Numbered from the stretch's first letter, positions 18,993-51,344 are shown. The stretch is 64,000 nucleotides of DNA from an uncultured Pseudomonadota bacterium (GCA_963836235.1 CAWIIP010000001.1:352001-416000), one strand, 5' to 3'. Notes: a model not told the origin generated them from the letters alone. Numbers and translations are program-made.

Positions 18993-19024
18993 GTTGTCCA
19001 CGACGGGTCCCCGCAAGGAACAAC
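18993..19024 (+). repeat. 32-bp palindromic site, copy 1
   Basis: GTTGTCCACGACGGG-TC-CCCGCAAGGAACAAC. Confidence 0.85.
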
Positions 19025-20056
19025 CCATAGGTGCTATTTTAGCAAAATGTCGAAAAATTATTGTCCCCTCGTAACAAAGAGTCTGGCTGGACTTCCTCCG
19101 AAAAAATAGGCATCTGAAAGGCGAGGCGAACCTAAAGTGTTGAATGTTGGCTCTTTGTTTCAGTACCTTCAAAGCTCGCTAGCCGCGTTGTGATCTTCTC
19201 ATTCCTTCACAGCATGAGTTTTTATTCCGCGTCCTAAAACACCTGCTAATTTCTTTTCATCATCGTTCAGCCGATGGAATAGATCGACCGCCCTTTTATC
19301 ATATCCCGCCCGAACATAGATCTTCCGAATTCCATTGATCGATATCTCTTTCAAACGATCATCCTCGCTGAATAAATTTTTTCGAAGAATATCAAAACAC
19401 CAGTCGAAAACCATGGCGTTATCAGAAATAATTGACATCGCCTTTTCCCGAACGGATTTTCTCGAATCTTTTAACGATCTTGTCACGATTTGTTTTTCCG
19501 AAGAATCTTTCAGATCACCTATTAAATTCATAATGCTCAAAACCGACTCCTGATCGTCGATTCGCGTGTCGAACGCCTTTAATAAAACATTACCTTTGTG
19601 ATCGATCTCCATGTTTTTGAGACACGTCAAATCGTCCTCAAAATCCTTAATCCCAACATAAGGTAAAAGGTATTTTCCCAATTCAACACTCTGACTTTCG
19701 CAAATTTGGTGCATGGCCTCTTTCTTAACCAAATTGACCTCTTTGGAATTTTCAGAACTCAACAAAATATTTTGAAGAGCTTGCATTCTAGGAACCGACT
19801 TACTATTTCGAAGTTCTACCAAAGCTTGCAAATTGTAGAATTTGATAGATGCCATCCATGACAACAATGCGTCCGATGTGCTGTCGTTGATAGATGCCAA
19901 ATATTTCGCAAGCTCATCCAAGTTCGTTTTAGGATCCGCTTTCGTCAAATAAGGAAGGACCCAATCCGTGCCGATCGTCGTTCCTAATTTCCGAACGATG
20001 TCAAAGACAGTCTTTTGGTTTTGTCTCTCAATAACGGCGTCAACTAACCATTTAAG

Positions 20057-21760
20057 CCCGGATTTCCCAGATGGAATTTCCTTTCGAGTATAATAAGACA
20101 ACGTTTGGCCATATAAACAAAGGTTTTTCTTCGTGTTGGGGAACATGAGAGGGGGAAATGCAATGGGTGAAGGCGGAAAAGACGCTCTTCGGGTGGTTTT
20201 TGACCCTGGCCTCAAGTTGGAGTTCCATGGTGCGAAGGTCACTTCCGATGGCGGGTTGATTCCCTATCGCGAACTCGACGAAGCTTTTGGTTTGACTGAC
20301 AGAACAGAAAACATCCTTTGGGATCGGCGGACCGGTAAGAATACGCAACACACGATTACGGCGCTTCTTCGCCAGTCGGTATTCAGCCGCTTGGCCGGTT
20401 ATGAGGATACCAACGACGCAGAACGCCTGAGTGTCGATCCTGCGATGCGGCATGTGATCGGAGGACGGGCCAGGGAAAAACAGGCCGCCTCCACCAGCCA
20501 GATGGGTCGTTTCGAGACGGAGGTCCTCACCCAGTCGAAGAATTTGACCGGCTTAATTGACTTATCGGGCCAATGGATCGATGGAGTCCATGAGAAAAAG
20601 CCCATACAACAGATCATCCTCGACATGGATAGCTCAGTGAGCGAGACCTACGGGGATCAGGAAGGTTCCTTGTACAACGGTTACTTTGGCTGTACCTGTT
20701 ACCATCCCCTGTTTTGCTTCAACCAGTTCGGCGATTTGGAACGGGCTATGTTGCGCAACGGCAATGTGGCCAGTGCCCACGAATGGCGTTCGGTTCTTGA
20801 ACCGGTAGTTGCCCGCTACCGGGGTCTTTCCATCAGCCGGTTTTTCCGGGGTGACGCGGCTTTCGCCCGTCAGGAACTATACGAATACCTAGAAGACGAA
20901 GGATATCTTTACGCGATCCGCCAACCTGCCAATGCCATACTCCAACGGGAAATCGAGCCATTTTTAACCCGTCCCGTGGGCCGCCCCTCCCACAAGCCGG
21001 TTGTCCGGTTTCACAGCTTCCAATACCAAGCCGTCAGCTGGGACAAACCCCGCCGCGTGGTGGCGAAGATCGAACATCACAACGGGGAATTGTTCCCAAA
21101 GGTGGGTTTCATCGTAACGAACATGCGACGACCGGCACCCCAGGTGGTGAAATTCTACAACGGAAGAGGCACGGCTGAGCAGTGGATCAAAGAGGGAAAG
21201 TATGCGATGAAGTGGACAAGACTAAGCTGCCACGACTTCGCGGACAACCAAGTGCGCTTACAACTATTCGCCCTGGCCTACAATCTGGGCAACTTCCTGC
21301 GCCGACTGGCACTGCCAGAACTGGTGAAACATTGGTCGCTAACGACCTTGAGGGAAAAACTCATCAAGATCGGGGCTAATGTCATCCGTCATTCGCGGTA
21401 CGTTATTTTCCAGATGGCGGAGGTGATGGTTTCCCGACGCCTGTTTGCTGAAATCCTCAATCGGATACGGCTACTGGCAATGGTAAGGCCGCGAGCGCCA
21501 GTACTGCGATAACCGCAGGAAGGCATCAAGGCTTCAACCCGAGCGACTACCGCAGGATAGGTGTGCGCTCACAACGAGAATTGGCTTTCCAGAAGGTCAA
21601 TTTCAGCTTTTTTGGGCACAGAAACCTTTTCCTGGGGCTTATTTCAGTGGCCCAGGACGGAAAATTCCGGATTCGGATGGAAGAAGCGGGGGGGGGGCGA
21701 TATAATGAGAAACAAATTACCCGGCAATGTTTTCAGAGAAGGTCATCTGGGAAATTCCGG
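20057..21760 (+). mobile_element. IS1380-family insertion sequence (1704 bp)
   Basis: IRs CCCGGATTTCCCAGATG / CATCTGGGAAATTCCGG; 5-bp TSD TTAAG at 20052-20056 and 21761-21765. Confidence 0.93.
20163..21512 (+). CDS. IS1380-family DDE transposase
   Basis: TSDGG, GYEDTNDAERLSVDP, LDMDSS, RGDAAF, FYNGRGTAEQWIKEGK. Confidence 0.95.
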   Translation: MGEGGKDALRVVFDPGLKLEFHGAKVTSDGGLIPYRELDEAFGLTDRTENILWDRRTGKNTQHTITALLRQSVFSRLAGYEDTNDAERLSVDPAMRHVIGGRAREKQAASTSQMGRFETEVLTQSKNLTGLIDLSGQWIDGVHEKKPIQQIILDMDSSVSETYGDQEGSLYNGYFGCTCYHPLFCFNQFGDLERAMLRNGNVASAHEWRSVLEPVVARYRGLSISRFFRGDAAFARQELYEYLEDEGYLYAIRQPANAILQREIEPFLTRPVGRPSHKPVVRFHSFQYQAVSWDKPRRVVAKIEHHNGELFPKVGFIVTNMRRPAPQVVKFYNGRGTAEQWIKEGKYAMKWTRLSCHDFADNQVRLQLFALAYNLGNFLRRLALPELVKHWSLTTLREKLIKIGANVIRHSRYVIFQMAEVMVSRRLFAEILNRIRLLAMVRPRAPVLR

Positions 21761-23739
21761 TTAAGACTTTTTTCATCTCTTGGTAGTTCAGGTTCGATAT
21801 TAAAAACCGAAGATATCTTTATGACCGCATTCCAAATCGCAAGACGCATCCCTAAATTTTCATCCTCGACATACTGATTCAATTCGTTCAAAGAGTCTTT
21901 ATTACCTACATCCGACAACAGATTCGCGGCATTGATTCGGATTTCATCATCTTTGTTGTTCAAGGTTTTATAAAGAAGTTGCAAATAATTAGCATAGTTA
22001 GACCTCAAATTCATTGAGATCGGACCATAAAAAGAAGAGCCGCCATCTCCTTTAGTTTGGGTTTCGACTCCCGCGGCGATCAAATCGAACGCCTGTCCGA
22101 AGCCGAAAACATCAGGACGGAGCAACACATGAGCAAAGACGAACTTGCGAAAAGCCGACGATCGGTTCCAAAACGGTGTTAAACCATAATAACCGTCTAG
22201 GGCATCGTCTCGAACTCCGGATAAAAACAAATCTTGCAAGACTTGTTTTTTTTGTTTTTCATATTTTTTATCCGCGAACTTGTCCAAACCGGCAATGATC
22301 GTATTTCTTTGGCCGACCCCATCTTTATAGTTTTCGATGAACTTGACGTGGGCCTCGAACGATTTCTCGCCGCCCAAAGTGCTCAAAACGTTCCAGTATT
22401 GATAAGAAAAATGTGGTTCTCCGTTCAAGAAACGCTCGGCCAATTCATCCGCTATACGCGTATTTCCCTCCGTGATCAATATCTTTTCCGCGCTACTCAT
22501 CGAATCATTCGCGTCATTGGTCAAGATTTCCGAAACCGCGTTCTGAAGCGAGGCGTTTTCATTTTTTATTCCCGGCTCCAAAAACTTATCATGGACGACC
22601 ATATCCACTTCCCGAACACGAAAGTAGCCGTCATCGGCGATATATAAATTGCCCCAACGGTCCACGGTGATCCCCGCGGGGGGCCACATCGCGGCGGAGA
22701 TGGCGGGTACACCATCGTTCATATCGCCCTGCAATCCGTTTTTTCCTGCCACCACCGTGATAAGTCCATCAACGTCCACTTTTCGTACGTTGTATTTATA
22801 TTCATCTTGGATATAAAAATTACCGAACCGGTCCGTCGCCAAGTTGATGGGTGACATCGCCGCCATTGTCGCCAGGCCATCATCCCCCGAATATTCAGTA
22901 ACACCCGTACCCGCCACGGTCGTGATAGTTCCATCCTGATCGATTTTCCTGATGCGATGATTTTGGTAGTCAACGAACAAAAGATCCCCGGAAGAATCAA
23001 AAACCATTTTGGCTGGAAGGTTGACCTCCGCGTTGATTGCTGGTCCCCCGTCGCCGCTAAACCCTGCGGTTCCATCCCCGCAAACCGTCGTGATGATCCC
23101 ATTTTGTTCGATCTTGCGGATCCGATTGTTATAGGAGTCGGAAATATATATGTCACCGTTCTGATCCACGGCGATACCGCTCACCCAATTCACCTTTGAT
23201 TGTGTCGCGGGGCCTCCATCACCTGAATAACCTGACACGCCACAACCTGCCACGGTGGAGATTAGGTCATTGGTATCCACTTTTCTCACCAAATAATTTC
23301 TAGCGTCACTGAAATATAGATTATTTTGACCGTCGGTGGTCAATGCACAAGGATTGTTCAAAGGCACCCAGATCGCTGGATTCGTTTGACCAGGACCCGA
23401 AGCCCCACATTTTCCATTTCCCGCTATGGTTCTAATGATTCCATGAGCATCAATTTTTCGAATACGGCAATTATCAAAATCGGAAATATAGATGCTGCCT
23501 GAAGAATCAGAACAAATCCCGATGATTTGACCCAAACCGGCGTTTTTGGCCGGCCCTCCATCGCCCGAATAACCAAAACCCATACCTGCAATGGTTTTTA
23601 TAATCGGTATATGTTTCTTGGGATTGTCCGCCTTCAATTTAATTTCGTCAGCCGCACAAATACTGGCTGAAAATAAAAAACAGAAAATAAAAAAAATCAT
23701 ATAACCTTTCAATTTCAAATAAATCTCCCTTAAATATCA

Positions 23740-23771
23740 TCTATCCACTACGGATCCCCGTCGCGGACAAC
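23740..23771 (+). repeat. 32-bp palindromic site, copy 2
   Basis: TCTATCCACTACGGA-TC-CCCGTCGCGGACAAC. Confidence 0.8.
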
Positions 23772-23816
23772 CTTTTCATCGGTTCACGTATTCTTTATTC
23801 TCTTCGTACCTTTTAA

Positions 23817-24269
23817 TTATTTTCCATCAAACTCTATTTGGGTTGATTTTAACTTTATCATTTTCAAGATTTCCCTGATGGTTTTCCTAGAAAATGGCTT
23901 GCCTATAAAAAGGGGCGCGTAGGGTTTCATTTCTTTGTAATAAATATCCACTCCACGAAGAATACCCTCATGAGGTGTAACCTTTGTAATGTCCGTCCAT
24001 TGAACCCGTCGAACAAATTTTTTGTAGCTAAAAAATGAATATTCGAGCGCCTCATCATCGATCTTAATCTGAGATGTCCAATAAATAAATCCATAGATTA
24101 CCCAGCCAAATCCCCCTAGCAAGAAAAACAAAATAATCAAAAGATAATTTTTTAAATATAACCCGATTACGAAGGGAAAAATAAAATTAGAAATCAATAA
24201 CGCTGAAGAGAAGCACAAAGAACCTATTGAGCTTCGATAAACGGTTAATAATCTTAAATTTTCATTCAT
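23817..24269 (-). CDS. Small membrane protein (2 TM plus PH-like domain), cassette cargo
   Basis: 150 aa from ATG 24269; AT-rich; bounded by sites at 23740 and 24284. Confidence 0.65.
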   Translation of the reverse strand: MNENLRLLTVYRSSIGSLCFSSALLISNFIFPFVIGLYLKNYLLIILFFLLGGFGWVIYGFIYWTSQIKIDDEALEYSFFSYKKFVRRVQWTDITKVTPHEGILRGVDIYYKEMKPYAPLFIGKPFSRKTIREILKMIKLKSTQIEFDGK

Positions 24270-24283
24270 AAAGCCCTTTTCGA

Positions 24284-24315
24284 TTGGTCCACCCAATCTC
24301 CCCGTAAGGAACAAC
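24284..24315 (+). repeat. 32-bp palindromic site, copy 3
   Basis: TTGGTCCACCCAATC-TC-CCCGTAAGGAACAAC. Confidence 0.7.
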
Positions 24316-24351
24316 CTTTAGAAGCTATTTTAGCCAAATGTCGAAAAAAGT

Positions 24352-24383
24352 ATTGTTTACTCCGGGTCCCCGTCGTGGACAGC
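24352..24383 (+). repeat. 32-bp palindromic site, copy 4
   Basis: ATTGTTTACTCCGGG-TC-CCCGTCGTGGACAGC. Confidence 0.8.
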
Positions 24384-24393
24384 AAATTCGTTA

Positions 24394-24993
24394 TTAAACA
24401 ACGGATGGCCGGTTTAAATTAAAAATATCAATCCGCTTTTCTTCAAAGAGGTTTTCCAATTTCTTCGCCCCCTCATTTTCCACCAACCTGTATTCCTTTT
24501 CGGATATCGGGACAACCAATAGCCAAGTTAATTTCATGGTTTCAAGTTGGATTGTCTTATTGAGTTTGGCTGACCCTTCCCATGAGGAAGGTGGAGCGAA
24601 GAACACATGCCGGAGAGTTTTGGAGGCTTTATACATCGATACAACATCAGGGAATACCGCGCCCGGACAACAAAACCATTTTGAATTAATGACCGAAAAC
24701 GCAGCCGTCGCCAATATGTTTTCGAAATCCTTAAAATTCGATCCACAAGCTCCTACCAATTCCACCCTTGTATCAAATTCTTTTCCATCTTTTATTAAAG
24801 GATAATCTGATAAGCCTAACGTCCCATAAGAAGTGACCCCCACCTGCGGCTTATCAATACTTTTAAAAATATTAACGAATGATTTTTCCTTCTCATCCCC
24901 ATGGAGTATCACCCGTGGATCACCACCAAAAGTTTCTACCAGCGTTTTATATATCTCTTTTTGATCTTTGGTCGGCTTATCATTACGTTTCAT
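24394..24993 (-). CDS. Suppressor-of-fused (SUFU) domain protein, immunity-like
   Basis: SYGTLGLS, RVELV and WLLVVPISEKE motifs; bounded by sites at 24352 and 25013. Confidence 0.85.
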   Translation of the reverse strand: MKRNDKPTKDQKEIYKTLVETFGGDPRVILHGDEKEKSFVNIFKSIDKPQVGVTSYGTLGLSDYPLIKDGKEFDTRVELVGACGSNFKDFENILATAAFSVINSKWFCCPGAVFPDVVSMYKASKTLRHVFFAPPSSWEGSAKLNKTIQLETMKLTWLLVVPISEKEYRLVENEGAKKLENLFEEKRIDIFNLNRPSVV

Positions 24994-26276
24994 CTAATAT
25001 TCCTTTTAATTCTTTGTCCACGATGGGTCCCCCTCGTGGACAGGTCAAATTGGTGGGAATTGTTGTTCCTTTTGGTCCAATTGAAAACCATTTTCTCCAA
25101 CCGCCTCAAGTAGGATTCCGAAAACAACATTTTCAGTTCCTTCCGCAGAAAATCCTCCTTCTCTTGGGGAAGCCCCAATAGGAGAGCAGTCCCATAGATC
25201 ACCATTTCAGCCGAAAGACGGTGATAACTGGTGGAAGCCTCAAAGTTGCTTCCTTCCTCATGAAATTGGCTTTCAACCTCCTTTCGAAGCTCGGAAGCCG
25301 AGAACCGAAGCCAATGATCCGTGGTCTTGGATGTAGGCAGATAGGCGGAAGCGAAAAGCAGGCCTACGATATCAGCCAAATAATGATTTGAACGAAGGTC
25401 GGGGTCCCATTCCAGGTGATTATAAATATGGGAGGCGTGCGCGAAAACGCTCTTGGCAAAAGCTTTCTTAAAAGACTCATCCCAAACAACGCCAAAGACA
25501 ACGAATAGATCGTAAGCCAGAAGCCAATTAGCCACTCGAATGGCCACATCCATCGTGCAAGACCAATTCACTCCAAAACGGGGTGGATTGGTGGCTGTAA
25601 AATCCAGTATCTGATTACGAAATTCACTGCGCAAAACCTCTTTTTTCCCTTGGTCTTGGGACAGGCCGAAGGCCAAGGCCAATTGAGGCAGGTGCTGGGC
25701 CCGGGCCAGTTCCCAAGGCACCTTCACATCCACCCCCGGAAGACGGCCATAACGGACGTTCGGGCTCCAAGTTTTTTCATCCCATCGGAACCCCGATTTG
25801 AAATCCAATTGCCAGTCGATAGGACTATAATTTTGTTCGATCAGACCCCACAAACGCCGGGACGTTTCCATGTTTGCCGGATTTATCCTTCCTATTAGCC
25901 ATCGACCCTCCGAATCGGCCGTGACCGGAACCTCAGGAGGAAACCGGTGACCTTCGACTCCTTTGCAATCTAAGCCGTAGGCGACCCGGACCCATCCCGA
26001 ACCCAGCAAATTAAACTCGTGATGGATGAAATGCTCCGTGTGGTCCCGGATAAGTCCGACAGGAAATAGAGCAGGATCGGGAAAAAGGCCCTTTATGATG
26101 GAGACCAGAGGCCCTTCCGGAAAGCGGGTCCGAGGTTTAAAGGTTGAGCTTTGGGCATCCTCCCTCCGTCTCCAGGTTTCCCAATAACGGATTTTAACTT
26201 TCCGGATAGCCTTCCGCACAACTATATGTGGCGGCATGGAGACGGCTCGTTTTATATAATGGAAAAAATTTTTCAA
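24990..26276 (-). pseudogene. Heparinase II/III-family protein, N-terminal part only
   Basis: IDWQLDFKSG, DVKVPWELAR, SNHYLAD, FEASTSYHRL. The C-terminal domain is missing and the ORF reads through a half-site and site 5. Confidence 0.75.
25013..25044 (+). repeat. 32-bp palindromic site, copy 5
   Basis: TTTGTCCACGATGGG-TC-CCCCTCGTGGACAGG. Confidence 0.88.
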
Positions 26277-26288
26277 CCGCGTCTCTCT

Positions 26289-27578
26289 TCAAACTAAGTT
26301 TTTAGGCTGTTTTAACCATTGACTGCTGATCATTCGGTTCTGATGATTTCCCCCAGGTTGGTACCATCGCTCCAAGGCCCAACAGGCCATCCGAGCCGAA
26401 AAAATCCAACCCGTGACATACGTCCCAATCACGTAAAAATCCCACGGGGATACCACTATTCCGTTTGCAGCATAAAATCCAACGCAGACTAGGAAGGGAA
26501 GGATTTCCAAAATCGGAGGTTTGACCCAAAAAACCAGGACCAAACCGATAACCATACAACGAATGAGTTTAACCCGCATATAAAACAATTTAGCCAATGC
26601 CTGGTGAAGAACAAAACCGGGATGTTGGGCCACGATATCCAAAGTCAGCCTTCGCATGACTTCCTCGTATTTCTCCGAATACATGGGCACACTTGGATCA
26701 ATCTTTCGGATAGCCCGGTCACCTGCCCCATCCCCATAAATTGGCTGATAGGGATTGGGAAGATAACCCAGTGCCCCGTAAATGGGGTGCCAAAAGGGAT
26801 GCCGGATGGGCCGAAGGACAAATGAGGGGTTATGGATTCGCAAAAAGGCGTCCCGGTGGTTTGCAAGGATATTGAATTGGATTTGAGGTAAAAAGAACCC
26901 CGTTGCCAAAATGGCCGCCAGTCCCAAACGCCGGCTCCAGGGAATTCCCTCTAAAGACATGAACCAAAAAAAAACGAATAAAAGGACTCCCGTGGAGGAA
27001 TGGATTCTCATCAGTTCCGCGTAGCCCAGGATGATTCCCACGCAGAACAGAACCGCTTGGGCCGCCCACGAACTTTGAAAAGGCCGAACTTTTAAGGACA
27101 CCAGCAGGGGGAGAATGGCCAAGGCTGGGTATCCCTGAATACTAAAGGTGTCGCCTATCGGAACCAACTGACGGAGAGCTGAAAAAACCAACAGAAATGC
27201 CGCGACCCGGGCGGGCCAACTCGGAAAAGCCCTCCAAAAAGACCACAAGGCGATGGCCGTGCAAAAAAAAGGGATCAGGGAAAAAAATAACTTTAGGCTG
27301 AAACTTAAATTCAATCCAAAAATCCGTCCCAAAATCGGCACAAAATAAAATATTCCCGGGTCGTCCAAGGAAATACCGGGAATATAACCGGCGGGAACCC
27401 ATTGGGAATTCACCCAACTGACCAAATCCGGCGCTCCGAGAGAATGGGCGTCAAAACAGCCTTGCAAAAACTGGAGCCGGTTGGGATTGATGTCAAAGTT
27501 CATGGTGAAGAAACGCTGGAGATTGCCAGGAAAAAAAACTTCCAAAAGAGTGTTCATGGTCTCCCTCAATGTATTCAT
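26289..27578 (-). CDS. Multi-pass membrane protein of a polysaccharide locus (GT-C-like)
   Basis: About 10 hydrophobic segments; start overlaps the glycosyltransferase stop (ATGA). Confidence 0.65.
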   Translation of the reverse strand: MNTLRETMNTLLEVFFPGNLQRFFTMNFDINPNRLQFLQGCFDAHSLGAPDLVSWVNSQWVPAGYIPGISLDDPGIFYFVPILGRIFGLNLSFSLKLFFSLIPFFCTAIALWSFWRAFPSWPARVAAFLLVFSALRQLVPIGDTFSIQGYPALAILPLLVSLKVRPFQSSWAAQAVLFCVGIILGYAELMRIHSSTGVLLFVFFWFMSLEGIPWSRRLGLAAILATGFFLPQIQFNILANHRDAFLRIHNPSFVLRPIRHPFWHPIYGALGYLPNPYQPIYGDGAGDRAIRKIDPSVPMYSEKYEEVMRRLTLDIVAQHPGFVLHQALAKLFYMRVKLIRCMVIGLVLVFWVKPPILEILPFLVCVGFYAANGIVVSPWDFYVIGTYVTGWIFSARMACWALERWYQPGGNHQNRMISSQWLKQPKNLV

Positions 27579-28526
27579 GATCTCTCCTTGAGCTTTTCGA
27601 TGATCTTCCGGGTGTGTTCTTTCCAGGTGTACTTGGCTACGCACTCTTCCTGGGCGGCGCGGCCCAGCCGTTCCCGCAGGGGCTGATCCCCGGCCAAAAC
27701 CTTCAGCCCCTCTTTTAAAGAATCCTTATCTCCCGGCTTGACCATCAAGGCCGTTTCATTGGGTTTTAATATTTCCCCGATCTGGTCCAGGTTGGAAGCC
27801 ACAATACCCTTACCCATGGCCATATACTCGAACAACTTGGTGGGTGATCCAAAAAAAGGCGTTCCATCCGGGTTCGGAATATGGGGCGCCACCAGAATAT
27901 CGCAAGCCGCCAGGTAAGCGGGGCCTTCTGCCTGGGGCATGGTACCAGTCAGAACGCAAAGGTCCTTAACATAATACTTCCCGATGATTTCCTTCACCAA
28001 AGGCATGGCGATCCCGTCACCAATCATCAAAAGCCGCGTCTCGTCTCGGAATTTCGTGTCCCCCCGGGCCAGTTCGGCGAAAGCCCGGGCCAGCACTTCC
28101 GCCCCATGCCATTTCCCGAAAGTGCCGATGAAACCCAAAACTTTTTTTCCCTCCAAGCCGTATCTTTTGCGGATGGGGGACCCATCCACTTGCGGCGAAT
28201 ATTTGTCCGTGTCCACCCCGTTGGGATTGACCAGGATTTTTTCCGGATCAATCCCGCGCGCGGTCAGTTCGTCCTTCAGGGGCCTGCTGACCACCACCAC
28301 CAAATCTGCGGCTTGCAGGTTCACCTTCTCGATTTTTTTCGAAAGAGCCTCATACTTTAGGGGTTTTCCCCAGTGGCGGCTCACCCATATTTCGGACCCG
28401 TTATATTCCAGAACGAAGGGAAGTTTCTTCTCGCGGGCCAGCCGGAGCCCCGAATAGTCGTTAAGGCTGTAACGCTGGTAAATGAAGGACAAGGTTTCCT
28501 CCCCGAGGGAGGCCAGGGCCAAAAGG
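27575..28526 (-). pseudogene. GT4 glycosyltransferase, 5'-truncated at the 37-bp repeat
   Basis: FIYQRYS, LEYNGSE, NPNGVD, FFGSPTKLFEYMAMG; no native start or N-terminus. Confidence 0.8.
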
Positions 28527-28895
28527 GTTGCACACTATCCTTTTTGCGACAGGCATGTGCAGGGTCTCACTATCGCGGACAAACAACCATTCAATTCCTT
28601 TAAACCCCATCGAAATGCCATGGGTCAGTTTTACAAACGCTAACCACACCATTAGATTAAGTAAAACTTCAACTGAAATTCCCAATGCCGGTACTTGATC
28701 CATCTTGAGGTGTAACGTCCATAGGAGCGACATACCTAGCAACTTACCAGGCATAAGCCCTAATGCACCAACTCCCCCAAACACGAGCCCGATAACCGAA
28801 TCGTATGGCAAATGAAACAAGTGACTTGGGCACCAACAAAAAAGTTCAGCGACCACCTGCCAAACAATAAATACAGTCCAAAACTTTCGGTTCAT
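28461..28895 (-). CDS. Small membrane protein, cassette cargo; C-terminus runs across the 37-bp repeat
   Basis: MNRKFWTVFIVWQ..., 3-4 TM helices; ends with LHMPVAKRIVCN, which is encoded by the repeat. Confidence 0.55.
   Translation of the reverse strand: MNRKFWTVFIVWQVVAELFCWCPSHLFHLPYDSVIGLVFGGVGALGLMPGKLLGMSLLWTLHLKMDQVPALGISVEVLLNLMVWLAFVKLTHGISMGFKGIEWLFVRDSETLHMPVAKRIVCNPFGPGLPRGGNLVLHLPALQP
28527..28563 (+). repeat. 37-bp hairpin repeat, copy 1
   Basis: GTTGCACACTATCCTTTTTGCGACAGGCATGTGCAGG, identical to 53292-53328. Confidence 0.9.
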
Positions 28896-28935
28896 ATAGT
28901 GCCTTTCAATAATTTGGCTCCCTACGGTAAGCAAC

Positions 28936-28967
28936 CTTGTCCACGAAGGGTCCCCGTCGTGGACAAC
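28936..28967 (+). repeat. 32-bp palindromic site, copy 6 (degenerate tandem copy at 28904-28935)
   Basis: CTTGTCCACGAAGGG-TC-CCCGTCGTGGACAAC. Confidence 0.9.
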
Positions 28968-28983
28968 AAAAGTTTTTTGATGT

Positions 28984-29364
28984 TTACAACTTGTGAAAAG
29001 CCTTCAACTCCCCGTAATAATCCACATAAGCCAGCACCGCCATCAACCCATAGTACCCAACGATCAGCCACCTAGTTTTTTTGAGGTTATTTTTTAACAG
29101 AAGTTCCCAGGTCATTGCAAAAATAAAAGTTTGAACGGGAAAAAAGAAAGGAATCCAATTTTGGGTAAATCCAAAGAACAGCATTGAAAATGGAAAATGC
29201 AAATAGAGGTTCAAGTAAAAGATCATATACCGGCCCCAAAAGGAAGTTCCCATATCAATCAACTTATTTTCCACAACGATAAAGGAAAGGGTTATGTATA
29301 AAAAATCCAACCCCACCCAAAAAATGATATTCTTCCAATTTATTTTTCGAAGTTTTTTAATCAC
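28984..29364 (-). CDS. Small membrane protein, cassette cargo
   Basis: 126 aa, 3-4 TM helices, AT-rich; bounded by sites at 28936 and 29360. Confidence 0.65.
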   Translation of the reverse strand: MIKKLRKINWKNIIFWVGLDFLYITLSFIVVENKLIDMGTSFWGRYMIFYLNLYLHFPFSMLFFGFTQNWIPFFFPVQTFIFAMTWELLLKNNLKKTRWLIVGYYGLMAVLAYVDYYGELKAFHKL

Positions 29365-29391
29365 GAGAACCAGCTCCCCGTTGCGGACTAA
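29360..29391 (+). repeat. 32-bp site, copy 7 (right arm conserved)
   Basis: ATCACGAGAACCAGC-TC-CCCGTTGCGGACTAA; its minus-strand GGAG is positioned as an RBS for GTG 29364. Confidence 0.6.
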
Positions 29392-29450
29392 TTAATTAGC
29401 TTTTCATATACTCAAAAAATTGGTCTCAGGCCGACATTATCCATTTCGGG

Positions 29451-29482
29451 CTTGTCCACGATGGGTCCCCGTCGTGGACAAC
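29451..29482 (+). repeat. 32-bp palindromic site, copy 8
   Basis: CTTGTCCACGATGGG-TC-CCCGTCGTGGACAAC; preceded by an extra left arm ATTATCCATTTCGGG (29436-29450). Confidence 0.9.
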
Positions 29483-29490
29483 TTCAAACA

Positions 29491-30771: not shown

Positions 30772-30829
30772 CAAAACACCCCCTCGTTCCGCCACGAAAA
30801 AAGATGCCAGACCACCCTGACCCTTTCGT

Positions 30830-30861
30830 CTTGTCTACTACGGGTCCCCAGTGTGGACAAC
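30830..30861 (+). repeat. 32-bp palindromic site, copy 9
   Basis: CTTGTCTACTACGGG-TC-CCCAGTGTGGACAAC. Confidence 0.85.
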
Positions 30862-30900
30862 TTCCTAAACTTGGCCGGTTATAAGTTTATTCGACAACCA

Positions 30901-34623: not shown

Positions 34624-34627
34624 GGGT

Positions 34628-34909: not shown

Positions 34910-34941
34910 GCGTCCTCCTTTTATTTACTATGTTTTTTTCT

Positions 34942-36354: not shown

Positions 36355-36362
<8 letters not shown>
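36033..36362 (-). CDS. atpQ: N-ATPase subunit AtpQ (AtpZ/AtpI family)
   Basis: GLGMMGLIGWSVVVPTLLGAALGLWLD. Confidence 0.85.
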
Positions 36363-39409
<3,047 letters not shown>

Positions 39410-39413
<4 letters not shown>

Positions 39414-41779: not shown

Positions 41780-41795
41780 TTTAAATCCCCCTTTT

Positions 41796-42995
41796 TCAGC
41801 CGATGTCGAGAAGGCGGCAAACCATCTTGGCGATCATGAATTCCTCGTCCGTGCAAATGATGCGGACGCTAACCCGGCTTTTGTCTCGGGATATCACCCC
41901 CTCGTTCGCCGTGTTCCGTTTTTCTTCGAGTTCAATCCCCAGAAATTCCAGTCCATCGCAAATCCGGGCCCGGACCGTGGGCGCGTTTTCGCCGATACCG
42001 GCCGAGAATACCAGCGTGTCCAGGCCGCCTAACGCCGCCGCGAAAGCGCCGATCCATTTCTTGACCTGGTAGCAAAATAACGTTATGGCCTCCGCCGCCC
42101 GCTGGTCCATCTTTTCGCTTTTCAACAAATCGCCCATATCCGAACTGGTTTCTGAAACCCCAATGAGTCCGGATTTGAAATTAACCATTTCATTGAATCC
42201 TTTTGCGTCGAGTCCCTCTTCACGCGCCAGGTAACCAAACAATCCGGGATCAATATCCCCGGAACGTGTGCCCATCGGCACACCGGCTGCGGGTGTAAAA
42301 CTCATACTGGTGTCCAGGGACTTTCCTTGCCGGACCGCCGCCAGGCTCGCGCCATTGCCAAGGTGGGCGAGGATGATCTTGCCTTGTGCCGCCTTCACCC
42401 CGGCCAAGCGGGCCAACTCCTCCATGAGGTACGAATAGGATAACCCGTGAAATCCATACCGGAGCACCCCCTTTGCCTCGTACCGGCGCGGAATCGGCAA
42501 CATCCGAGCTACTCGCGGCAAATTTTTATGGAAAGCCGTGTCGAAACAGGCCACTTGGGGCAAGTCGGGAAACCGGCGATGAAAAGCATCAATCAACATG
42601 ATCTCTTCCGGCAAGTGTTCAGGATCGAAAGTCGTGAGTTGCCGTAATTCCTCGATCATTTCTTTTGTGATTATTTTCGGGTCGCTATAATTCGGTCCTC
42701 CATGAACCACCCGGTGTCCTACTGCCGCCAAGGCGTCACGACCGCCGCGTTCTCCTATCCAATCCATTAGTACGCCCACCGCCGATTTGTGATCGGGCGT
42801 CTTAACTGGTCGAGTAAAATTGTCCAAAGGGGCCGGTCCCTTGACCCGCAAGGTGGCATCCGGCAATCCAATCCGGTCAATCCTGCCCGCCAGAATCCGC
42901 CTTAAAGGGTCGCCAATCTCAAATAAGTCGAACTTGATACTTGATGAGCCGCCATTGATGGTCAAAATGCGGGGTTCAGACGGATTCATCGCCAA
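41796..42995 (-). CDS. ackA: Acetate kinase
   Basis: [38 protein letters not shown]. Confidence 0.95.
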
Positions 42996-43623
42996 CTCCT
43001 TCCTGATTCCTCAACCCGAACGAGGCCAACTTCTTCTGCGTGGACTTTATGTCCCTGTGAAGAATGCTTCGAATCCCCAGACCTTCAGCGACTCGGACAA
43101 ACATCGGGGTGTTTTCGATATAGACAACCTGCCGGGCCGGGGCACGGGCTATATCCAGGGCGAACCGGAATATATCCGCGTCGGGTTTGCGGACATGCAC
43201 AAAGCAGGAGGTGATGAATGAATCAACGAAGGTATCGAGCCTGAATTTTCGTATCCGATAGGCGTTTAATTCCCGCGCTTCGTTGCTGACTACGGCGATC
43301 CTTAACTTGTAACGTTTCTTGAGCCCAGGGATCAATTCGATCATTTCGGGGTGGGGTTTTGACTGGGCGAACATGAAGTTCCGAAACTCAAGGCGGGTAA
43401 AGTGCCGTTTTCGGTAAAAAACAACCCGGCTTAGATATTCCTTAAATGAGAGCTTTCCCTCCTCATAGGCATCAAAGGTCAAATGATGGCGGTCCTCCAT
43501 CTCGTCTAAATCTATCTTGAATTTCACCGCCGCCCGTTTACGGGCGTGATGATCCCATCCGTCGGTGAGCAAGACTCCGCCGACATCCAGGAACAGTGTC
43601 GTAATCTCCGTTGGGCGTTTCAT
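42976..43623 (-). CDS. HAD-family phosphatase
   Basis: FLDVGGVL, SN, RKPDADIF. Confidence 0.88.
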   Translation of the reverse strand: MKRPTEITTLFLDVGGVLLTDGWDHHARKRAAVKFKIDLDEMEDRHHLTFDAYEEGKLSFKEYLSRVVFYRKRHFTRLEFRNFMFAQSKPHPEMIELIPGLKKRYKLRIAVVSNEARELNAYRIRKFRLDTFVDSFITSCFVHVRKPDADIFRFALDIARAPARQVVYIENTPMFVRVAEGLGIRSILHRDIKSTQKKLASFGLRNQEGVGDESV

Positions 43624-47197: not shown

Positions 47198-47229
47198 ATT
47201 GTCCATCACGGCTCCTCGTTGCGAAAAAT
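47198..47229 (+). repeat. 32-bp site, copy 10
   Basis: ATTGTCCATCACGGC-TC-CTCGTTGCGAAAAAT. Confidence 0.6.
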
Positions 47230-47373
47230 TTAAGCGTGAAAATCCGTTACGCTTCCCACGAAGTGTAACGGCCAAAAACCGGGTAGTACAAGCCCATCAT
47301 CCCGCAAAAGCTTTGGGAGAAAACTCAGAAGGTGATGGGAAAACACTTCAAATTAAGATAATCAGTAGTACTG

Positions 47374-47405
47374 AGTGTTCCTTTTGGGTCCCCGTGGTGG
47401 ACAAC
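47374..47405 (+). repeat. 32-bp site, copy 11
   Basis: AGTGTTCCTTTTGGG-TC-CCCGTGGTGGACAAC. Confidence 0.8.
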
Positions 47406-47500
47406 CCCGGATTCGTTCAATTACCCGCCGCCAAAATCCATGGAATGTTCTCGAGAGCATTTTGGACCCGCGAGGCGCCCAAGCCCGGCTCCGTCAAACC

Positions 47501-49144
47501 CTATTGGGGTTTCCCTGTTTCCGGACCGCCCTTATCCCTTTTGTATTCCTTGAGCTTCCGGTAAAGCGTCGCCACACCCATTCTCAAGAGATCCGCCGCT
47601 TTTCTCCGGTTCCCGTCTGATCTTTCAAGGGCATCCAGGATGGAGTCTTTTTCCACATTCCATAAAGAACGGGGTTCTCCCGGGTCGGGGACAGGGGGCC
47701 TATCCATGAGCACCTCGGGGGGAAGATCGGTCACATCGACCCGGTGTGTCTTGGCCACCGCGACCGCCCGCTCCATGGCGTTGGCAAGTTCACGAACGTT
47801 ACCGGGCCAGTTGTACACGAGCAGACGGTCCACCGCCGGGACGGTCATGCCCTCCACGGCCCGTTTCATGTGGATAGCGGCCTCCGCCAAAAGGAGCCGT
47901 GCGAGCGGAAGGATGTCTTCCCGTCGTTTTCGGAGGGGAGGGACAGCCAACTCGACCACGTCCAGCCGGTAGAAAAGGTCCTCGCGGAACCTTTTTTCGG
48001 CAACCTCGACCCTCAGGTCCTTATTGGTAGCGCTTATGATGCGGACATTGATCGGACGGCTTTTGTTCTCCCCGACCCGCCTGACTTCCCTCTCCTGGAT
48101 GGCCCGAAGGAGCTTCACTTGCATGGGAAGGCTGATCTCACCGACTTCATCCAGCAAAAGCGTCCCGCCGTTGGCCGCCTCGAAGAGGCCCATCCGGTCC
48201 GTGGACGCCCCAGTGAAAGCCCCTTTGGCATGGCCGAAAAGTTCGCTCTCCAGGAGGGTGTCAGTGATGGCTCCGCAATTGACCGCGATAAAAGGGCCGT
48301 CCGAGTGAGCCGAATGGTCATGGACATAACGCGCCACCCTTTCCTTGCCCGTGCCGCTCTCGCCCGAAATGAGCACCGTGGAATCGATGGCCGCGATGGT
48401 CTTGGCCAATTCCATTAAATTGCGCATTTCGGGGCTCCGCGTCATGAGCTCCGAAGGGTCTTCCTCGATCTCCGCCAGTTTTTCCAGTTTGCGGGTCTTT
48501 TGGCGCAATTCATTTTCCGTTCGCTTCAACGTGCTGGCGACGTTCCGAAGGGTATCGTCGATCACCACCCGCTTATAAACCACCAGATCGTCCTGGACCT
48601 CATTGCCCCACTCTTCCTCGGCCTTGACGATCACATGGCAGGCCGCATCGCCCTTTCCCATGCACTTGTCCTCCAACGCGTACATTTCCTTGCCCTTGAC
48701 GAAACTCATATAACCGCTGATGAGCCCGCAAAGGTTCCAGCAAACGGGTTTATCCGACCGGCCCTTCAGGAGAAGATGCTGCTCGGCTTCGTAGGAAATG
48801 CGCCAAGTGCCTCCCTCAGGTCCAAAGCCTTCGGGGCTTTTAGGGTCCAGCATGAAAAGGCCTTGGAGGGCCAGGATACGGAATCCGGCCTTTTGCCAAT
48901 CCTCGTCGCTGTCCCATTTGAACTTGCTCTTGAGGGTTTCGGCCAAGCGCTTGCCGTGGATGTAGCCGTAATGACTGAGAATGCCCCGAGCCGTCCTCTC
49001 GCTGAAGGTATCGATGAGTTCTTTACGAAGCAATCCCTGGGACACAGCATCGAATATCAAGGCCCTTTGCCCGGCGAATTGGACCACTCCCCCACTGGGG
49101 TCTGTTTTCAAGAGTTTTGTTAAGGTCAGATCATCCACGCGCAT
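47501..49144 (-). CDS. Sigma54-dependent transcriptional activator with XylR-N/V4R sensor domain
   Basis: GESGTGKE, ESELFGHAKGAFTGA, V4R Cys residues (PVCW, KCMGKGDAAC), Fis-type HTH. Confidence 0.93.
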   Translation of the reverse strand: MRVDDLTLTKLLKTDPSGGVVQFAGQRALIFDAVSQGLLRKELIDTFSERTARGILSHYGYIHGKRLAETLKSKFKWDSDEDWQKAGFRILALQGLFMLDPKSPEGFGPEGGTWRISYEAEQHLLLKGRSDKPVCWNLCGLISGYMSFVKGKEMYALEDKCMGKGDAACHVIVKAEEEWGNEVQDDLVVYKRVVIDDTLRNVASTLKRTENELRQKTRKLEKLAEIEEDPSELMTRSPEMRNLMELAKTIAAIDSTVLISGESGTGKERVARYVHDHSAHSDGPFIAVNCGAITDTLLESELFGHAKGAFTGASTDRMGLFEAANGGTLLLDEVGEISLPMQVKLLRAIQEREVRRVGENKSRPINVRIISATNKDLRVEVAEKRFREDLFYRLDVVELAVPPLRKRREDILPLARLLLAEAAIHMKRAVEGMTVPAVDRLLVYNWPGNVRELANAMERAVAVAKTHRVDVTDLPPEVLMDRPPVPDPGEPRSLWNVEKDSILDALERSDGNRRKAADLLRMGVATLYRKLKEYKRDKGGPETGKPQ

Positions 49145-49322
49145 GTTCGTTCTCCTTTCAGGGAAAACGCAGGAAGCTTTCTTTACCATTACTTTACAGC
49201 TTGCGGAAAATCGCAATATGAGCGTGGTTAGGTTAAACGGTTTGTTTACAAAGGCTTTCCAGATCGGTCGCGGAATGCTTCTCCAGACCGGAAAAACCCT
49301 ATTTAATCCAACAGATTTTCCT

Positions 49323-49354
49323 TTTGTCCAATCAGGGTCCCCGTCATGGACAAG
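49323..49354 (+). repeat. 32-bp palindromic site, copy 12
   Basis: TTTGTCCAATCAGGG-TC-CCCGTCATGGACAAG. Confidence 0.85.
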
Positions 49355-49361
49355 TAACGAC

Positions 49362-49538
49362 TTAAGGTTTATAGACGAGCATCGCTTTGATATACATGGC
49401 GACGGCTCCCACGATCCAGCCCGCGAAAAATATAGCGACGGGCTTGGCTTGCTCTATACCGCCCTTGAGCCAAAATCCGCCGAGAACGATGGCCATAATG
49501 ATGGCCACAGCGATCCCCCAACTGACGAATGGATTCAT
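49362..49538 (-). CDS. 58-aa two-TM membrane protein, minimal cassette cargo
   Basis: GGAGG RBS, MNPFVSWGIAVAII...; fills the space between sites 12 and 13. Confidence 0.65.
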   Translation of the reverse strand: MNPFVSWGIAVAIIMAIVLGGFWLKGGIEQAKPVAIFFAGWIVGAVAMYIKAMLVYKP

Positions 49539-49556
49539 CTTGTAACCTCCAATTTT

Positions 49557-49588
49557 GTTGTCCAATGCGGCTCCCCGTCCTGGACAAG
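49557..49588 (+). repeat. 32-bp palindromic site, copy 13
   Basis: GTTGTCCAATGCGGC-TC-CCCGTCCTGGACAAG. Confidence 0.85.
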
Positions 49589-49672
49589 GTTATCATCTGG
49601 TTTAATGGTCATTCCAGTTCAATTTCACCTTCGTTGAAAACAACGGTTTTCTTCCGAAATGCCCCTCAAAAT

Positions 49673-49708
49673 AAAAAAACCCCGGGATTAAAACCCATCC
49701 CGGGGTTC
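49673..49708 (-). terminator. Intrinsic terminator
   Basis: Stem CCCCGGGAT / ATCCCGGGG with a T-run on the minus strand. Confidence 0.65.
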
Positions 49709-50109
49709 CGCTGGAAGAGGATTCTTTTTCTTAACACATCGGATTAAATCCCCTGGCACCTTCACGGTGCCCTATCAAGAATCTCTTCCAATTATTATCT
49801 TAAGCCTTTTGGTGGATTTGTTTATGAGCCAAGACATCCAGGCCTTTATATTTATTACGTTTTTTCGTAAAAGGCTTGTGTGTCGTTTCTGCCGGTTTTG
49901 AATTTTTTCGGCTGAAAGGGGATTTTTCACCTTCCAATGCCCATAACAACAGTTTTTCCAAAAAAGACCCGAACCTGCTAACCGCACGGTCAACCACGAT
50001 CTACCTCCCGTTAGTACCGGCTTGATCTTCAAGCCCGAAGACGTTACCGCAAGGGTTTGGGACAGCCCGATTCAGGCTGTGTAGGACAAAGCAAATTGTT
50101 TATTGAGGC

Positions 50110-50280
50110 TTATTTAGAGGCCCCGACTAATTCCTTCTCCGCTTCCACCCAATCACAGATCTCATCGTTGTTCGGGCAGCCACGGTTCTGCCAGTGGTAA
50201 TAAGCCGCCACTTCCAGTTTTTCTTGAGATACTTCTTTTTCTGACTTCACAACCGCATCCTTTTCTTTTGTCTTTGCCAT
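50110..50280 (-). CDS. DUF2934-like small protein
   Basis: LEVAAYYHWQNRG...DWVEAEKEL; AGGAG RBS. Confidence 0.8.
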   Translation of the reverse strand: MAKTKEKDAVVKSEKEVSQEKLEVAAYYHWQNRGCPNNDEICDWVEAEKELVGASK

Positions 50281-50333
50281 AAAAATTCTCCTTATTTTAT
50301 TTATTAAATTTACAAGAAATAGCGTGAAAGGTT

Positions 50334-50349
50334 TATGACCAATCTCACG
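50334..50349 (-). promoter_or_regulatory. Crp/Fnr-like box (class II position)
   Basis: TATGA-N6-TCACG, centred at about -41.5 relative to a -10 TAAATT at 50307-50312. Confidence 0.6.
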
Positions 50350-50362
50350 TTTCAATCTATTT

Positions 50363-51058
50363 TCAAACCTCATCTATTCGATCCACCAAGTCATTCACGT
50401 TCTTAACCGTGATTTGACCATGAACTGATCTTATCAACCCCACATCCTCAAGTCGGATACAGGCCCGAATGCAGGTTTCCACTGCTGTCCCAGCCATTTC
50501 CGCGATCTCCTTGCGGGTCAAAGGAATTACATTTCCGAATTCCCGCACCATTTCCACCAGGACATGCAAAATTCGTTTTTCTGCGCTTTCCTGTGAAAAG
50601 GTCTGCATATCCTTCGACCAGCGTAGGAGTTTAGAAATTTTAGAAAGGATATCCCGTGCCATTTGTGGGTATTTCCCAATAAGAGTCTGGAAAAATTGAA
50701 TAGGAAACGAAATCACCGTTGCATCGGTTTCGGCCAGGCAATGAAAGCCGTATTCACCTCCGCTAAATGCCGAAACCCCAAACATCCCATTAGCTCCCAC
50801 CATGCAAATGGTGTTGGATTGGCCTTCCGGTGAGTGGTGGATCTCCTTTACGTGGCCTTCCTTTACAAACCAGATGGATTCCGCCAGGTCATTTTCCAAA
50901 AAAATGGATTCCCTTTTCGCGTATTTTTTCTCAACCATGTTATGTTCGATTTCCCAAAATGCATCGGAAGGGATATTTTTGAAGAAGGACATCATCGAAA
51001 GAGGGCTCTTTTTTGTCCCATGAAAAGCAATCGGCCTGGTTTTCGTCATTGTCAGCAT
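50363..51058 (-). CDS. Crp/Fnr-family transcriptional regulator
   Basis: cNMP-like domain (WFVKEGHVK, GMFG); HTH LTRKEIAEMAGTAVETCIR. Confidence 0.9.
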   Translation of the reverse strand: MLTMTKTRPIAFHGTKKSPLSMMSFFKNIPSDAFWEIEHNMVEKKYAKRESIFLENDLAESIWFVKEGHVKEIHHSPEGQSNTICMVGANGMFGVSAFSGGEYGFHCLAETDATVISFPIQFFQTLIGKYPQMARDILSKISKLLRWSKDMQTFSQESAEKRILHVLVEMVREFGNVIPLTRKEIAEMAGTAVETCIRACIRLEDVGLIRSVHGQITVKNVNDLVDRIDEV

Positions 51059-51101
51059 GTCATCCACCTCTTTCCAGTTGTGATACTGATCCTTGTCATA
51101 G

Positions 51102-51117
51102 AGCAAGTGTTGCGCCA
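51102..51117 (-). promoter_or_regulatory. Sigma54 (-24/-12) promoter
   Basis: Minus strand TGGCGC-AACAC-TTGCT, upstream of the Crp gene start at 51058. Confidence 0.65.
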
Positions 51118-51312
51118 GTCAAGGAAGGTTAAAAAGAGGTGTTTTATGAACTTTAAAATCCATGAAGGGTAACACTATGGTCTGCCTGCTATGGCGGTAT
51201 AGCCATAGGGAAATGAAATATAGTCGGATGGGAAATTTAATTGATTATCAAAATGAGAGCTAAGTTACACACCCGCATACAAGGGTTATCCACAAAGGGA
51301 AGGTCAAATTCG

Positions 51313-51344
51313 TTTGTCCACTGCGGGTCCCCATCGTGGACAAT
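51313..51344 (+). repeat. 32-bp palindromic site, copy 14
   Basis: TTTGTCCACTGCGGG-TC-CCCATCGTGGACAAT; extra left arm GTTATCCACAAAGGG at 51285-51299. Confidence 0.88.

Follow-up and report, generated by a model that had tools for sequence, protein, structure and literature searches.

Arrays of gene cassettes bounded by a polar 32-bp site in candidate division FCPU426, with a short serine recombinase as candidate enzyme

Integrons are, to our knowledge, the only well-described systems in which site-specific recombination gathers single genes into arrays. A single enzyme family and folded, single-stranded attC sites underlie them; the latter are elements of 57–141 bp with RYYYAAC...GTTRRRY cores that form an imperfect hairpin with extrahelical bases. 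Integrase-less arrays (CALINs) are common among integrons. Here we describe arrays of another build in a 64,000-nucleotide stretch of an uncultured bacterial genome (the window, G000:C1:352001–416000; genome G000 comprises 3.97 Mb in five contigs), where gene units are bounded by direct repeats of a 32-bp element. An initial annotation of this DNA had proposed an undescribed system of cassette capture and shuffling. The proposal is supported by comparison with relatives from the same family, uncultured soil and peat bacteria whose records are titled candidate division FCPU426: in 41 pairs of sites only one flank is shared, and the break lies inside the site. Literature searches on FCPU426 and on serine-recombinase gene cassettes yielded no description of such a system. 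We favour, with moderate confidence, the reading that the 32-bp elements are recombination sites bounding mobile cassettes and that a short serine recombinase is the likeliest enzyme.

The resemblance to integrons and CALINs is extensive. In both, rows of mostly single, co-oriented and unrelated genes carry a site at each 3' end, toxin–antitoxin genes and genes of unknown function make up the cargo, several integrase-less arrays occur per genome, group II introns and IS110 elements target the sites, and cassettes are common to several species. The differences concern enzyme, site and layout. An integron integrase was rejected because the best tested protein of G000 reaches 77.9 bits against the TIGR02249 cut-off of 265, and none of the 31 family genomes covered by our integrase and short-recombinase surveys passes it. 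The site is a sequence-conserved, near-perfect palindrome of 32 bp that lacks RYYYAAC...GTTRRRY, with the crossover in the centre and not at a stem base; having no conserved flanks, no pairing constraint and no Rfam match (an Rfam search of the window matched 0 families), it was not accepted as attC. The integron layout of divergent integrase, attI and Pc was likewise rejected, as the candidate serine recombinase gene converges on the array at its distal end in 5/5 genomes; the proximal array ends examined hold no conserved gene.

Large serine recombinases are known to build accretion islands, among them composites of staphylococcal cassette chromosome elements (SCC/SCCmec, with CcrAB or CcrC), which are anchored at one essential gene, rlmH, and whose repeats copy the end of that target gene. 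The Dehalococcoides ssrA islands (with DsiB) are anchored in the same manner at ssrA (PMC3146451). Both kinds of island share with the present arrays an enzyme of the serine-recombinase family, tandem units set between directly repeated copies of a single short site, some having a recombinase of their own and others none, and ParB-domain genes nearby; the integration module of the ssrA islands includes one such gene (PMC3146451). Their units are multi-kb elements, and their enzymes are full length (about 450–540 aa). Here, by contrast, at least 12 arrays lie at places without tRNA or transfer-messenger RNA (tmRNA) genes, units mostly hold a single gene, the palindrome is free-standing and the enzyme lacks the zinc-ribbon/coiled-coil. 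An accretion island at a tRNA or tmRNA gene was rejected for this locus, since both gene types are absent from the window and from 12 array loci, and arrays are found at no fewer than 12 places.

A polar 32-bp palindrome at gene ends

On the strand of the genes, the sequence of the site is GTTGTCCACGACGGG-GA-CCCGTCGTGGACAAG; the plus strand of the window shows the central TC. The site is built as a 15-2-15 palindrome and derives its polarity almost entirely from the central dinucleotide, which is TC in 64 of the 66 sites used for this count. Its ends read GTTGTCC...GGACAAC, with conserved outer half-sites TGTCCA...TGGACA, and beyond the 32 bases no flank is conserved save a frequent TAAA. Across 339 distinct site contexts, drawn from G000 and relatives, positions 13–20 are the best conserved.

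A repeat search of the window returned 11 in-register copies (18993, 23740, 24352, 25013, 28936, 29451, 30830, 47374, 49323, 49557 and 51313), from which a first position weight matrix was built and later refined, with a site threshold of 16 bits. These copies score 29–54 bits, compared with a top score of 5.6 bits in a shuffled 2-Mb contig. The idealised consensus with ≤3 mismatches matches only two places in the window (28936 and 29451), where shuffles predict 0. The initial annotation had listed 14 copies plus a degenerate one at 28904, all of one polarity and confined to 19–51 kb. The 11 copies are solid and agree in polarity, whereas the remainder are weak: 24284, 28904 and 29360 stay below threshold with both matrices, 47198 reaches 20.8 bits with the first matrix and <16 with the refined one, and all four look like half or decayed sites. 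No strong copy lies elsewhere in the window, but the motif occurs genome-wide.

Scanning the genome with the matrix, as that annotation had suggested, revealed 77 sites ≥16 bits in G000, gathered in about 12 clusters, the largest of which holds 14 sites within 10.7 kb (C2:1192091–1202817). A neighbour within 5 kb was present for 70/77 sites, versus 18% expected, and adjacent pairs of sites scoring ≥30 bits were co-oriented without exception (50/50). The repeat family is real, and what had been taken for one array is part of a family-wide system with many arrays per genome. The 28-mer core (≤3 mismatches) was found in 18/24 other family genomes and in 5/5 further ones, 23/29 in all, and as a single 3-mismatch match in the one genome of a sister family (1/1); it was found in 0/15 genomes from eight other families of the phylum. 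In a scan with one genome per prokaryote species, at least 136 stretches carried the motif, and the 80 loci listed comprise FCPU426 records, unclassified metagenome-assembled genomes of the same projects and one Firestonebacteria record. The motif sequence is conserved over at least 13 genera and is absent from 2.9 million viral contigs.

The features of an integron-like array, co-oriented cassettes with a site at the 3' end of the gene, are present: among 64 strong sites assessed for gene context, 57 sit 3' of a co-oriented gene, a median of 29 nt from its stop codon, and the next start codon follows a median of 53 nt beyond the site. The gene and site map of the window bears out both the placement of sites at gene boundaries and the minus-strand orientation of single-gene units noted by the initial annotation, as well as the shift in base composition from unit to unit (GC content 0.345 to 0.562). 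Site strand is coupled to gene strand. Reversed genes occur in at least three units (e.g., C4:137347–138338 and C4:143524–144300) whose flanking sites keep the array polarity; polarity therefore belongs to the array and not to the gene or its transcription. The spacing of sites ranges from 49 nt to 16.5 kb and the intervals are genes; clustered regularly interspaced short palindromic repeats (CRISPR) were rejected on these grounds of irregular spacing and genic spacers.

This placement bears on another reading, in which the palindrome would bind a ParB-like protein, or serve a dimeric transcription factor as operator, and thereby keep each acquired gene under control or silent. Such a role would suit a long inverted repeat with these outer half-sites, which we take to resemble a split parS, and proteins with a ParB_N domain recur near the sites. 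The sites are, however, located downstream by stop codons and not at promoters, no co-occurring regulator was found, and both the strict polarity and the breakpoints within the site would be left unexplained. We consider this explanation very improbable.

Canonical copies fold into stable hairpins (z about −4) that lack a trailing U-tract, and for three variant copies of the window the folds are no more stable than those of shuffles. Positions 21–24 vary in 80–152 of the 339 sites and are compensated in 1–14 only, while their pairing partners, positions 9–12, are 82–95% conserved. Because stem variants are so seldom compensated and variant sites fold like shuffles, it is the sequence and not the stem pairing that is conserved, and the hairpin itself is not preserved.

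Reshuffling of cassettes and the point of exchange

Identical or similar cassettes were found in different arrays of the same genome. An NHL cassette is present in two G000 arrays with 100% identity over 1276 bp, ending at the outer edges of its two sites, and a BrnT/RHH cassette occurs in two arrays with 91% identity, bounded inside the sites. The gene end and site arm of copy 51313 recur at G000:C4:854937–855059, where the two sites (the second at C4:855029) diverge past position 22.

To locate the exchange point, we compared contexts in which one 50-nt flank was ≥90% identical and the other ≤50%. This comparison yielded 67 one-flank pairs among the 339 contexts, comprising 26 with group II introns right after the sites and 41 neighbour swaps; some pairs draw on the same site, and they are not all independent. 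The break in the 41 swap pairs always fell inside the 32-mer, never outside. Where the upstream flank was shared (26 pairs), 103/114 within-site differences were at positions 18–32, and where the downstream flank was shared (15 pairs), 27/33 were at positions 1–11, with no difference at positions 13–17 in any swap pair. The split of differences around positions 13–17 therefore places the exchange point at the site centre. Furthermore, variants at positions 18–20 travel with the downstream flank in 5 informative pairs, which fits a cut at 16–17 better than the exchange of a 6–8-bp overlap.

Based on these sequence comparisons, we regard the array anatomy, the reshuffling and a central crossover as established here, and the 32-bp elements are very probably cassette recombination sites. 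The initial annotation had named two observations that would speak against its proposal. Gene order fixed across the sites was not seen, with cassettes lying in different arrays and breaks inside sites. The motif is spread genome-wide, but not in a REP-like manner, having the clustering and uniform orientation given above. Both checks came out for the proposal.

A larger unit adds to this picture. Positions 30841–43056 of the window match G001:C9:114033–126248, from a genome of the same genus, at 99–100% identity, compared with 64–84% in other matched parts of the two genomes. The block-side arm and centre of site 30830 are shared, the other arm differs, and G001 has a further site about 130 nt past the other end of the block. 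Judged from sequence, this looks like the recent transfer of a 12.2-kb unit with one border in site 30830; an artefact of binning or assembly is a less likely alternative.

Alternatively, the element could be a repetitive extragenic palindrome (REP) or terminator-like palindrome spread by copying, with reshuffling as a by-product of homologous recombination between 32-bp repeats. It shares with REPs and their REP-associated tyrosine transposases (RAYT) a short extragenic palindrome 3' of genes, tens of copies and use as an IS110-type target; its canonical copies are stable hairpins just past stop codons, and many site-rich genomes have no candidate recombinase. It also attracts IS110 elements and group II introns, and class C introns are known to insert at terminator motifs and at attC (PMC4424553). 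The conservation of the sequence over at least 13 genera sets it apart from REPs, as do the extreme clustering and the strict polarity of the arrays, kept even around reversed genes, which a hairpin would not need. An uncompensated stem, several copies folding like shuffles, the missing U-tract, an invariant asymmetric central dinucleotide and breaks confined to the 32-mer in all 41 swap pairs argue further against it. Nor does the Y1/RAYT-type transposase distribution track the motif: a Y1/RAYT partner was rejected because three genomes rich in sites (G001, G018 and G023) lack its genes and four without sites (G007, G009, G017 and G024) possess them. In G000, each of the three Y1 genes is at least about 10 kb away from any site ≥16 bits. 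Overall, we deem a copied palindrome improbable.

The cargo is what integron arrays typically hold. Toxin–antitoxin genes (BrnT/RHH, HigB/HTH, MazF, PIN and TacA) often come as both genes in one unit, alongside GNAT, HAD, LOG and RibD_C proteins, immunity-like SUFU, WapI and DUF4265 proteins, NHL propellers and many family-less proteins. A solo cas1 gene (346 aa; G000:C1:431817–432857, L006 3817–4857) is located 42 nt past a site and is not accompanied by a CRISPR array within 16 kb. Copies with 99.4–99.7% protein identity (L017 1146–2183 and L086 9786–10823) stand behind the same variant arm in a related genome, and the gene looks like a travelling cassette. As it is a cassette found in three contexts only, Cas1 was rejected as the array enzyme.

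A short serine recombinase as the candidate enzyme

Of the two serine recombinases encoded in G000, the candidate (C2:163827–164663, 278 aa) aligns to positions 1–144 of 145 in PF00239 and 4–102 of 102 in PF07508, and ends about 10 residues past the latter, the Recombinase domain. It therefore has the Resolvase and Recombinase domains of a large serine recombinase and is devoid of the zinc-ribbon/coiled-coil domain PF13408. The same holds for its whole clade of 19 clusters, all 275–283 aa long and without PF13408, whereas the next relatives carry this domain. A large serine recombinase gene split by the arrays, with its C-terminal half at their far end, was rejected, since neither the genome nor the loci yielded such a separate half. 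The ratio of nonsynonymous to synonymous substitution rates (dN/dS) of 0.08–0.16 in the clade indicates purifying selection.

The gene occupies a constant position relative to the arrays. In G000, site C2:164696 begins 32 nt past its end, and the gene converges on the cassettes. Orthologues with 74–81% identity in G001, G022, G042 and G045 are each followed by a site and then an array, while no site lies upstream of the gene within 1.5 kb in 5/5 genomes or within 10 kb in 4/5, the exception being G045, where sites of a neighbouring array begin about 6 kb upstream. A downstream site follows 9/10 short-type gene ends in the genomes, and the tenth has a half-site split by an insertion; in 7 of these gene ends the site starts 46 nt after residue 265. 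In recombinase-adjacent sites the gene-side arm is degenerate, the centre (including TC) and far arm being canonical. The window itself retains such a junction, a recombinase remnant with its site (47281–47405) that is 92% identical to the intact gene end in G042. Among close relatives from metagenomes the site was present in 4/7; of the other three, one contig ends in an apparent site start, one ends inside the gene and one has no site. Full-length relatives (≤61% identity) had the site at 0/73 loci. Genomes with the intact gene hold more sites (Mann–Whitney p = 0.003, uncorrected for kinship), and the gene is present in 0/6 motif-free genomes. The initial annotation had called for a recombinase that co-occurs with the motif; this search produced a named candidate, which is nevertheless absent from several site-rich genomes. 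We rate the chances that it is the enzyme as evenly balanced. Small resolvases of G018 had no sites nearby and were rejected.

Further features were noted just upstream of the gene in G042, G045 and G022 (L188 8525–9730, L189 8685–10052 and L190 9231–9812). In G042 and G045 there is an ArdC-like antirestriction gene. A conserved, family-less open reading frame (ORF) of about 82 aa, whose DNA is repeated elsewhere in the same loci, precedes the recombinase in all three genomes and might encode an accessory factor.

An inverted repeat with an asymmetric central dinucleotide is the textbook crossover site of serine recombinases, and the 15-2-15 build with its invariant asymmetric TC fits this type. 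Like hix/gix, res site I and att cores, the element pairs half-sites around a 2-bp centre whose asymmetry sets the polarity. It differs from them in the length of the half-sites (15 nt, compared with ~12 nt for invertases and ~20–25 nt for integrases), in the equivalence of all sites, with no attP/attB distinction, and in forming direct repeats in long arrays.

The same sequence can also be parsed as a 12-8-12 core with arms GTTGTCCACGAC and overlap GGGGACCC, in which case a tyrosine recombinase, either a single Xer-like protein or another, would work the cassette sites and the serine recombinase would be just the integrase of an element. A 12-8-12 arrangement also suits lox, FRT and dif; positions 13–20 are indeed the best conserved, and one arm is more variable, as are the XerC/XerD arms of dif. 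An Xer-like gene is present and is expected in all genomes, which would explain site-rich genomes without the serine recombinase, and ArdC and RadC genes adjoin the latter. Yet the variants at 18–20, which would fall within that overlap, go with the downstream flank in each of the 5 pairs that are informative, and recombinase-adjacent sites alter overlap positions while retaining TC. Arrays also lack a regular tyrosine neighbour: a tyrosine recombinase beside arrays was rejected, having been seen in one region among 135 related loci only. Of the eight in G000, one is separated from the largest array by 5.4 kb, and the others that were placed are tens of kb away. We therefore view a tyrosine recombinase as an unlikely, if serious, contender. 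In pdif modules, whose XerC/D sites flank resistance genes on Acinetobacter plasmids, short sites bound small modules that move between replicons without a recombinase of their own, and one arm is more variable, both as here. However, pdif sites are 28 bp (11-6-11), alternating, dependent on host XerC/D and plasmid-borne, with unrelated sequences. A pdif/Xer module was rejected because the present sites measure 32 bp and are all direct repeats, so that the initial judgement that they are neither attC nor pdif stands.

Six of the tyrosine integrases of G000, among them the one 5.4 kb from the largest array, are paralogues (57–70% identical, 366–386 aa; C2:508543, C5:272301, C4:244739, C2:1373842, C2:1185612 and C4:195984). 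Five are preceded by an overlapping ORF of ~85 aa, the one tested belonging to an excisionase family, and the six probably mark six integrated elements of one family. A genome-wide scan found no site ≥16 bits beside these six integrase–excisionase pairs.

A number of observations weigh against the serine recombinase, or against the system as we read it. An intact short recombinase is present in only 5/31 family genomes, and the site-rich genomes G005, G021, G023 and G010 (89–99% complete) have 0 Resolvase domains. Next to the gene in G042 and G045 are ArdC, RadC and DUF2958 genes of the sort that conjugative or integrative elements typically carry, and the protein may serve such an element as integrase, with the site as a mere attachment target, much as group II introns and IS110 elements target it. 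The gene converges on the cassettes, whereas intI diverges, and there is no evident expression logic for new cassettes. Site-rich genomes without the gene recall the integrase-less arrays of integrons, but would equally be expected if another, universal enzyme, such as the single Xer-like protein, did the work, and near-identical 32-bp repeats could also support rare homologous recombination. Most of the genomes are metagenome bins, in which absences and some joins could be assembly effects. Only four soil-metagenome runs covered part of the stretch (0.06–0.13), in short contigs that start or stop at sites, with no site–site joint among the contigs and no excised circle or population-level cassette indel at this coverage.

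In the reading we favour, a cassette comprises one to few genes, rarely exceeding 10 kb; its 5' end bears the arm on the downstream side of one site, and its 3' end the arm on the upstream side of the following site. Recombination of two sites, with crossover in the central few bases, would excise, insert or swap the cassette and so build arrays of direct repeats at numerous chromosomal locations within one FCPU426 family. The putative enzyme, a protein of 275–283 aa with the catalytic and Recombinase domains and without the zinc-ribbon/coiled-coil, would cut at the invariant non-palindromic central TC/GA, which would also set polarity, and without a directionality domain it would treat all sites alike. 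This might amount to an integron of a second kind with an evolutionary origin of its own, a gene-capture system whose serine recombinase, having lost the directionality-controlling zinc-ribbon/coiled-coil, acts on identical double-stranded 32-bp sites at the central TC, an idea we put forward tentatively and hold at slightly less than even. If it were true, any cassette could enter or leave any array, and the system would have carried cassettes from genus to genus in an uncultured phylum, the 12-kb bioenergetic operon and the solo cas1 among them. Cassette capture would then have evolved more than once, the analogue being built from a simple double-stranded site of 32 bp and, probably, a minimal serine recombinase. 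As cassettes are easy to find by their site, the accessory genes of this uncultivated phylum of soil and peat would become accessible to study. Genome engineering could gain a small recombinase that has no directionality and a defined site of 32 bp, and the system offers a testable case of how a large serine integrase behaves after evolutionary loss of its directionality domain.

The two arrays of the window and other elements at the site

The window contains two arrays, both on the minus strand like all their sites, separated by an N-type ATPase operon and glycolytic genes. The left array (19025–30829, bounded by sites 18993–30861) holds six gene-bearing units. It ends with site 18993–19024 (34 bits), whose cassette-side arm is of the variant TGTTCCTT type and which lies 6 nt from the stop codon of a convergent ParB_N-like gene. 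The first unit, encoding a 347-aa ORF and the NHL/HEAT protein and interrupted by an insertion sequence (IS) at 20133–21512, is separated by site 23740–23771 (38 bits) from the second, encoding a 165-aa membrane protein. A decayed site (24284–24315) forms, together with 24316–24351, a 68-bp unit without a gene. The SUFU gene of the third unit has its stop codon 10 nt before site 24352–24383 (42 bits) and its start 19 nt from site 25013–25044 (45 bits), downstream of the latter, which overlaps the final codons of a heparinase-II/III-like ORF. This ORF belongs to the fourth unit of 3.9 kb, which further encodes a 451-aa ORF and a GT1 glycosyltransferase. The fifth and sixth units encode ORFs of 126 and 434 aa, with the near-consensus site 28936–28967 (54 bits) 16 nt past the stop codon of the former and site 29451–29482 (54 bits) 8 nt past that of the latter.

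Site 30830–30861 (39 bits) closes the left array and forms the left border of the block common to G001 (30841–43056, minus strand), with the N-type ATPase operon, fba, phosphoketolase and acetate kinase genes. The initial annotation had allowed units of up to 16 kb. Of the two ends of the 16.5-kb interval that begins here, the left alone carries a canonical site; the right is the atypical junction at 47374, beside the 3' remnant of a short serine recombinase gene (47281–47361, plus strand; the last 24 codons and stop). At this recombinase-adjacent site (47374–47405, 29 bits) the remnant-side arm is degenerate (AGTGTTCCTTTT), and TC and the other arm are canonical.

From there the right array (47406–51312, bounded by sites 47374–51344) extends over three units. 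The first encodes a sigma-54 activator (47501–49216) and has site 49323–49354 (42 bits) upstream; this site and 49557–49588 (39 bits) enclose a 202-bp unit, and the third unit comprises a Crp-family regulator, a DUF2934 protein and an 85-aa ORF. Upstream of the last site, 51313–51344 (45 bits), a further cassette is broken off at 51436, truncated by an IS with a Mutator-family transposase (51480–52700). In total, IS elements break two units in the window.

Two repeats stand out. One of 50 nt (88% identity; 19008–19057 and 24299–24348) joins the variant arm of the TGTTCCTT type to a conserved 33-nt flank, and an arm of this type also adjoins the serine recombinase gene in other genomes. By eye, the 33-nt flank, common to sites 18993 and 24284, contains a possible sigma-54 promoter match. 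Another of 40 nt (98% identity; 28527–28566, 53292–53331 and G000:C4:58804–58850) looks like an IS end, and one copy abuts a site. The ParB_N-like gene next to the left array (16632–18986, plus strand) encodes one of several large low-complexity proteins with such an N-terminal domain (others at L095 9277–11682, L080 3245–5308 and L050 7001–8227), which recur beside sites in several genomes, some in cassette positions.

The site is also the target of two group II intron lineages. Lineage 1, which encodes an ORF with reverse transcriptase and maturase domains and matches Rfam RF02005 and RF00029, has copies at G000:C2:1476543–1478492 (L005 4543–6492) and G000:C1:223030–224979. These are 99.8% identical, lie in gene sense and are inserted at the same phosphodiester inside the site, GGGGACCC(A)^TCGTGGACA. 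Lineage 2 (RF02003) begins right after sites ending GGACATC in 13 distinct contexts of related genomes, and some of its copies are ORF-less and about 0.8 kb long. IS110-family genes recur beside sites as well. Finally, a 320-aa Y1 (IS200-like) transposase family reaches up to 24 copies per genome in G012 and G042, and most copies in G012 are full length with one or two in-frame TGA codons.

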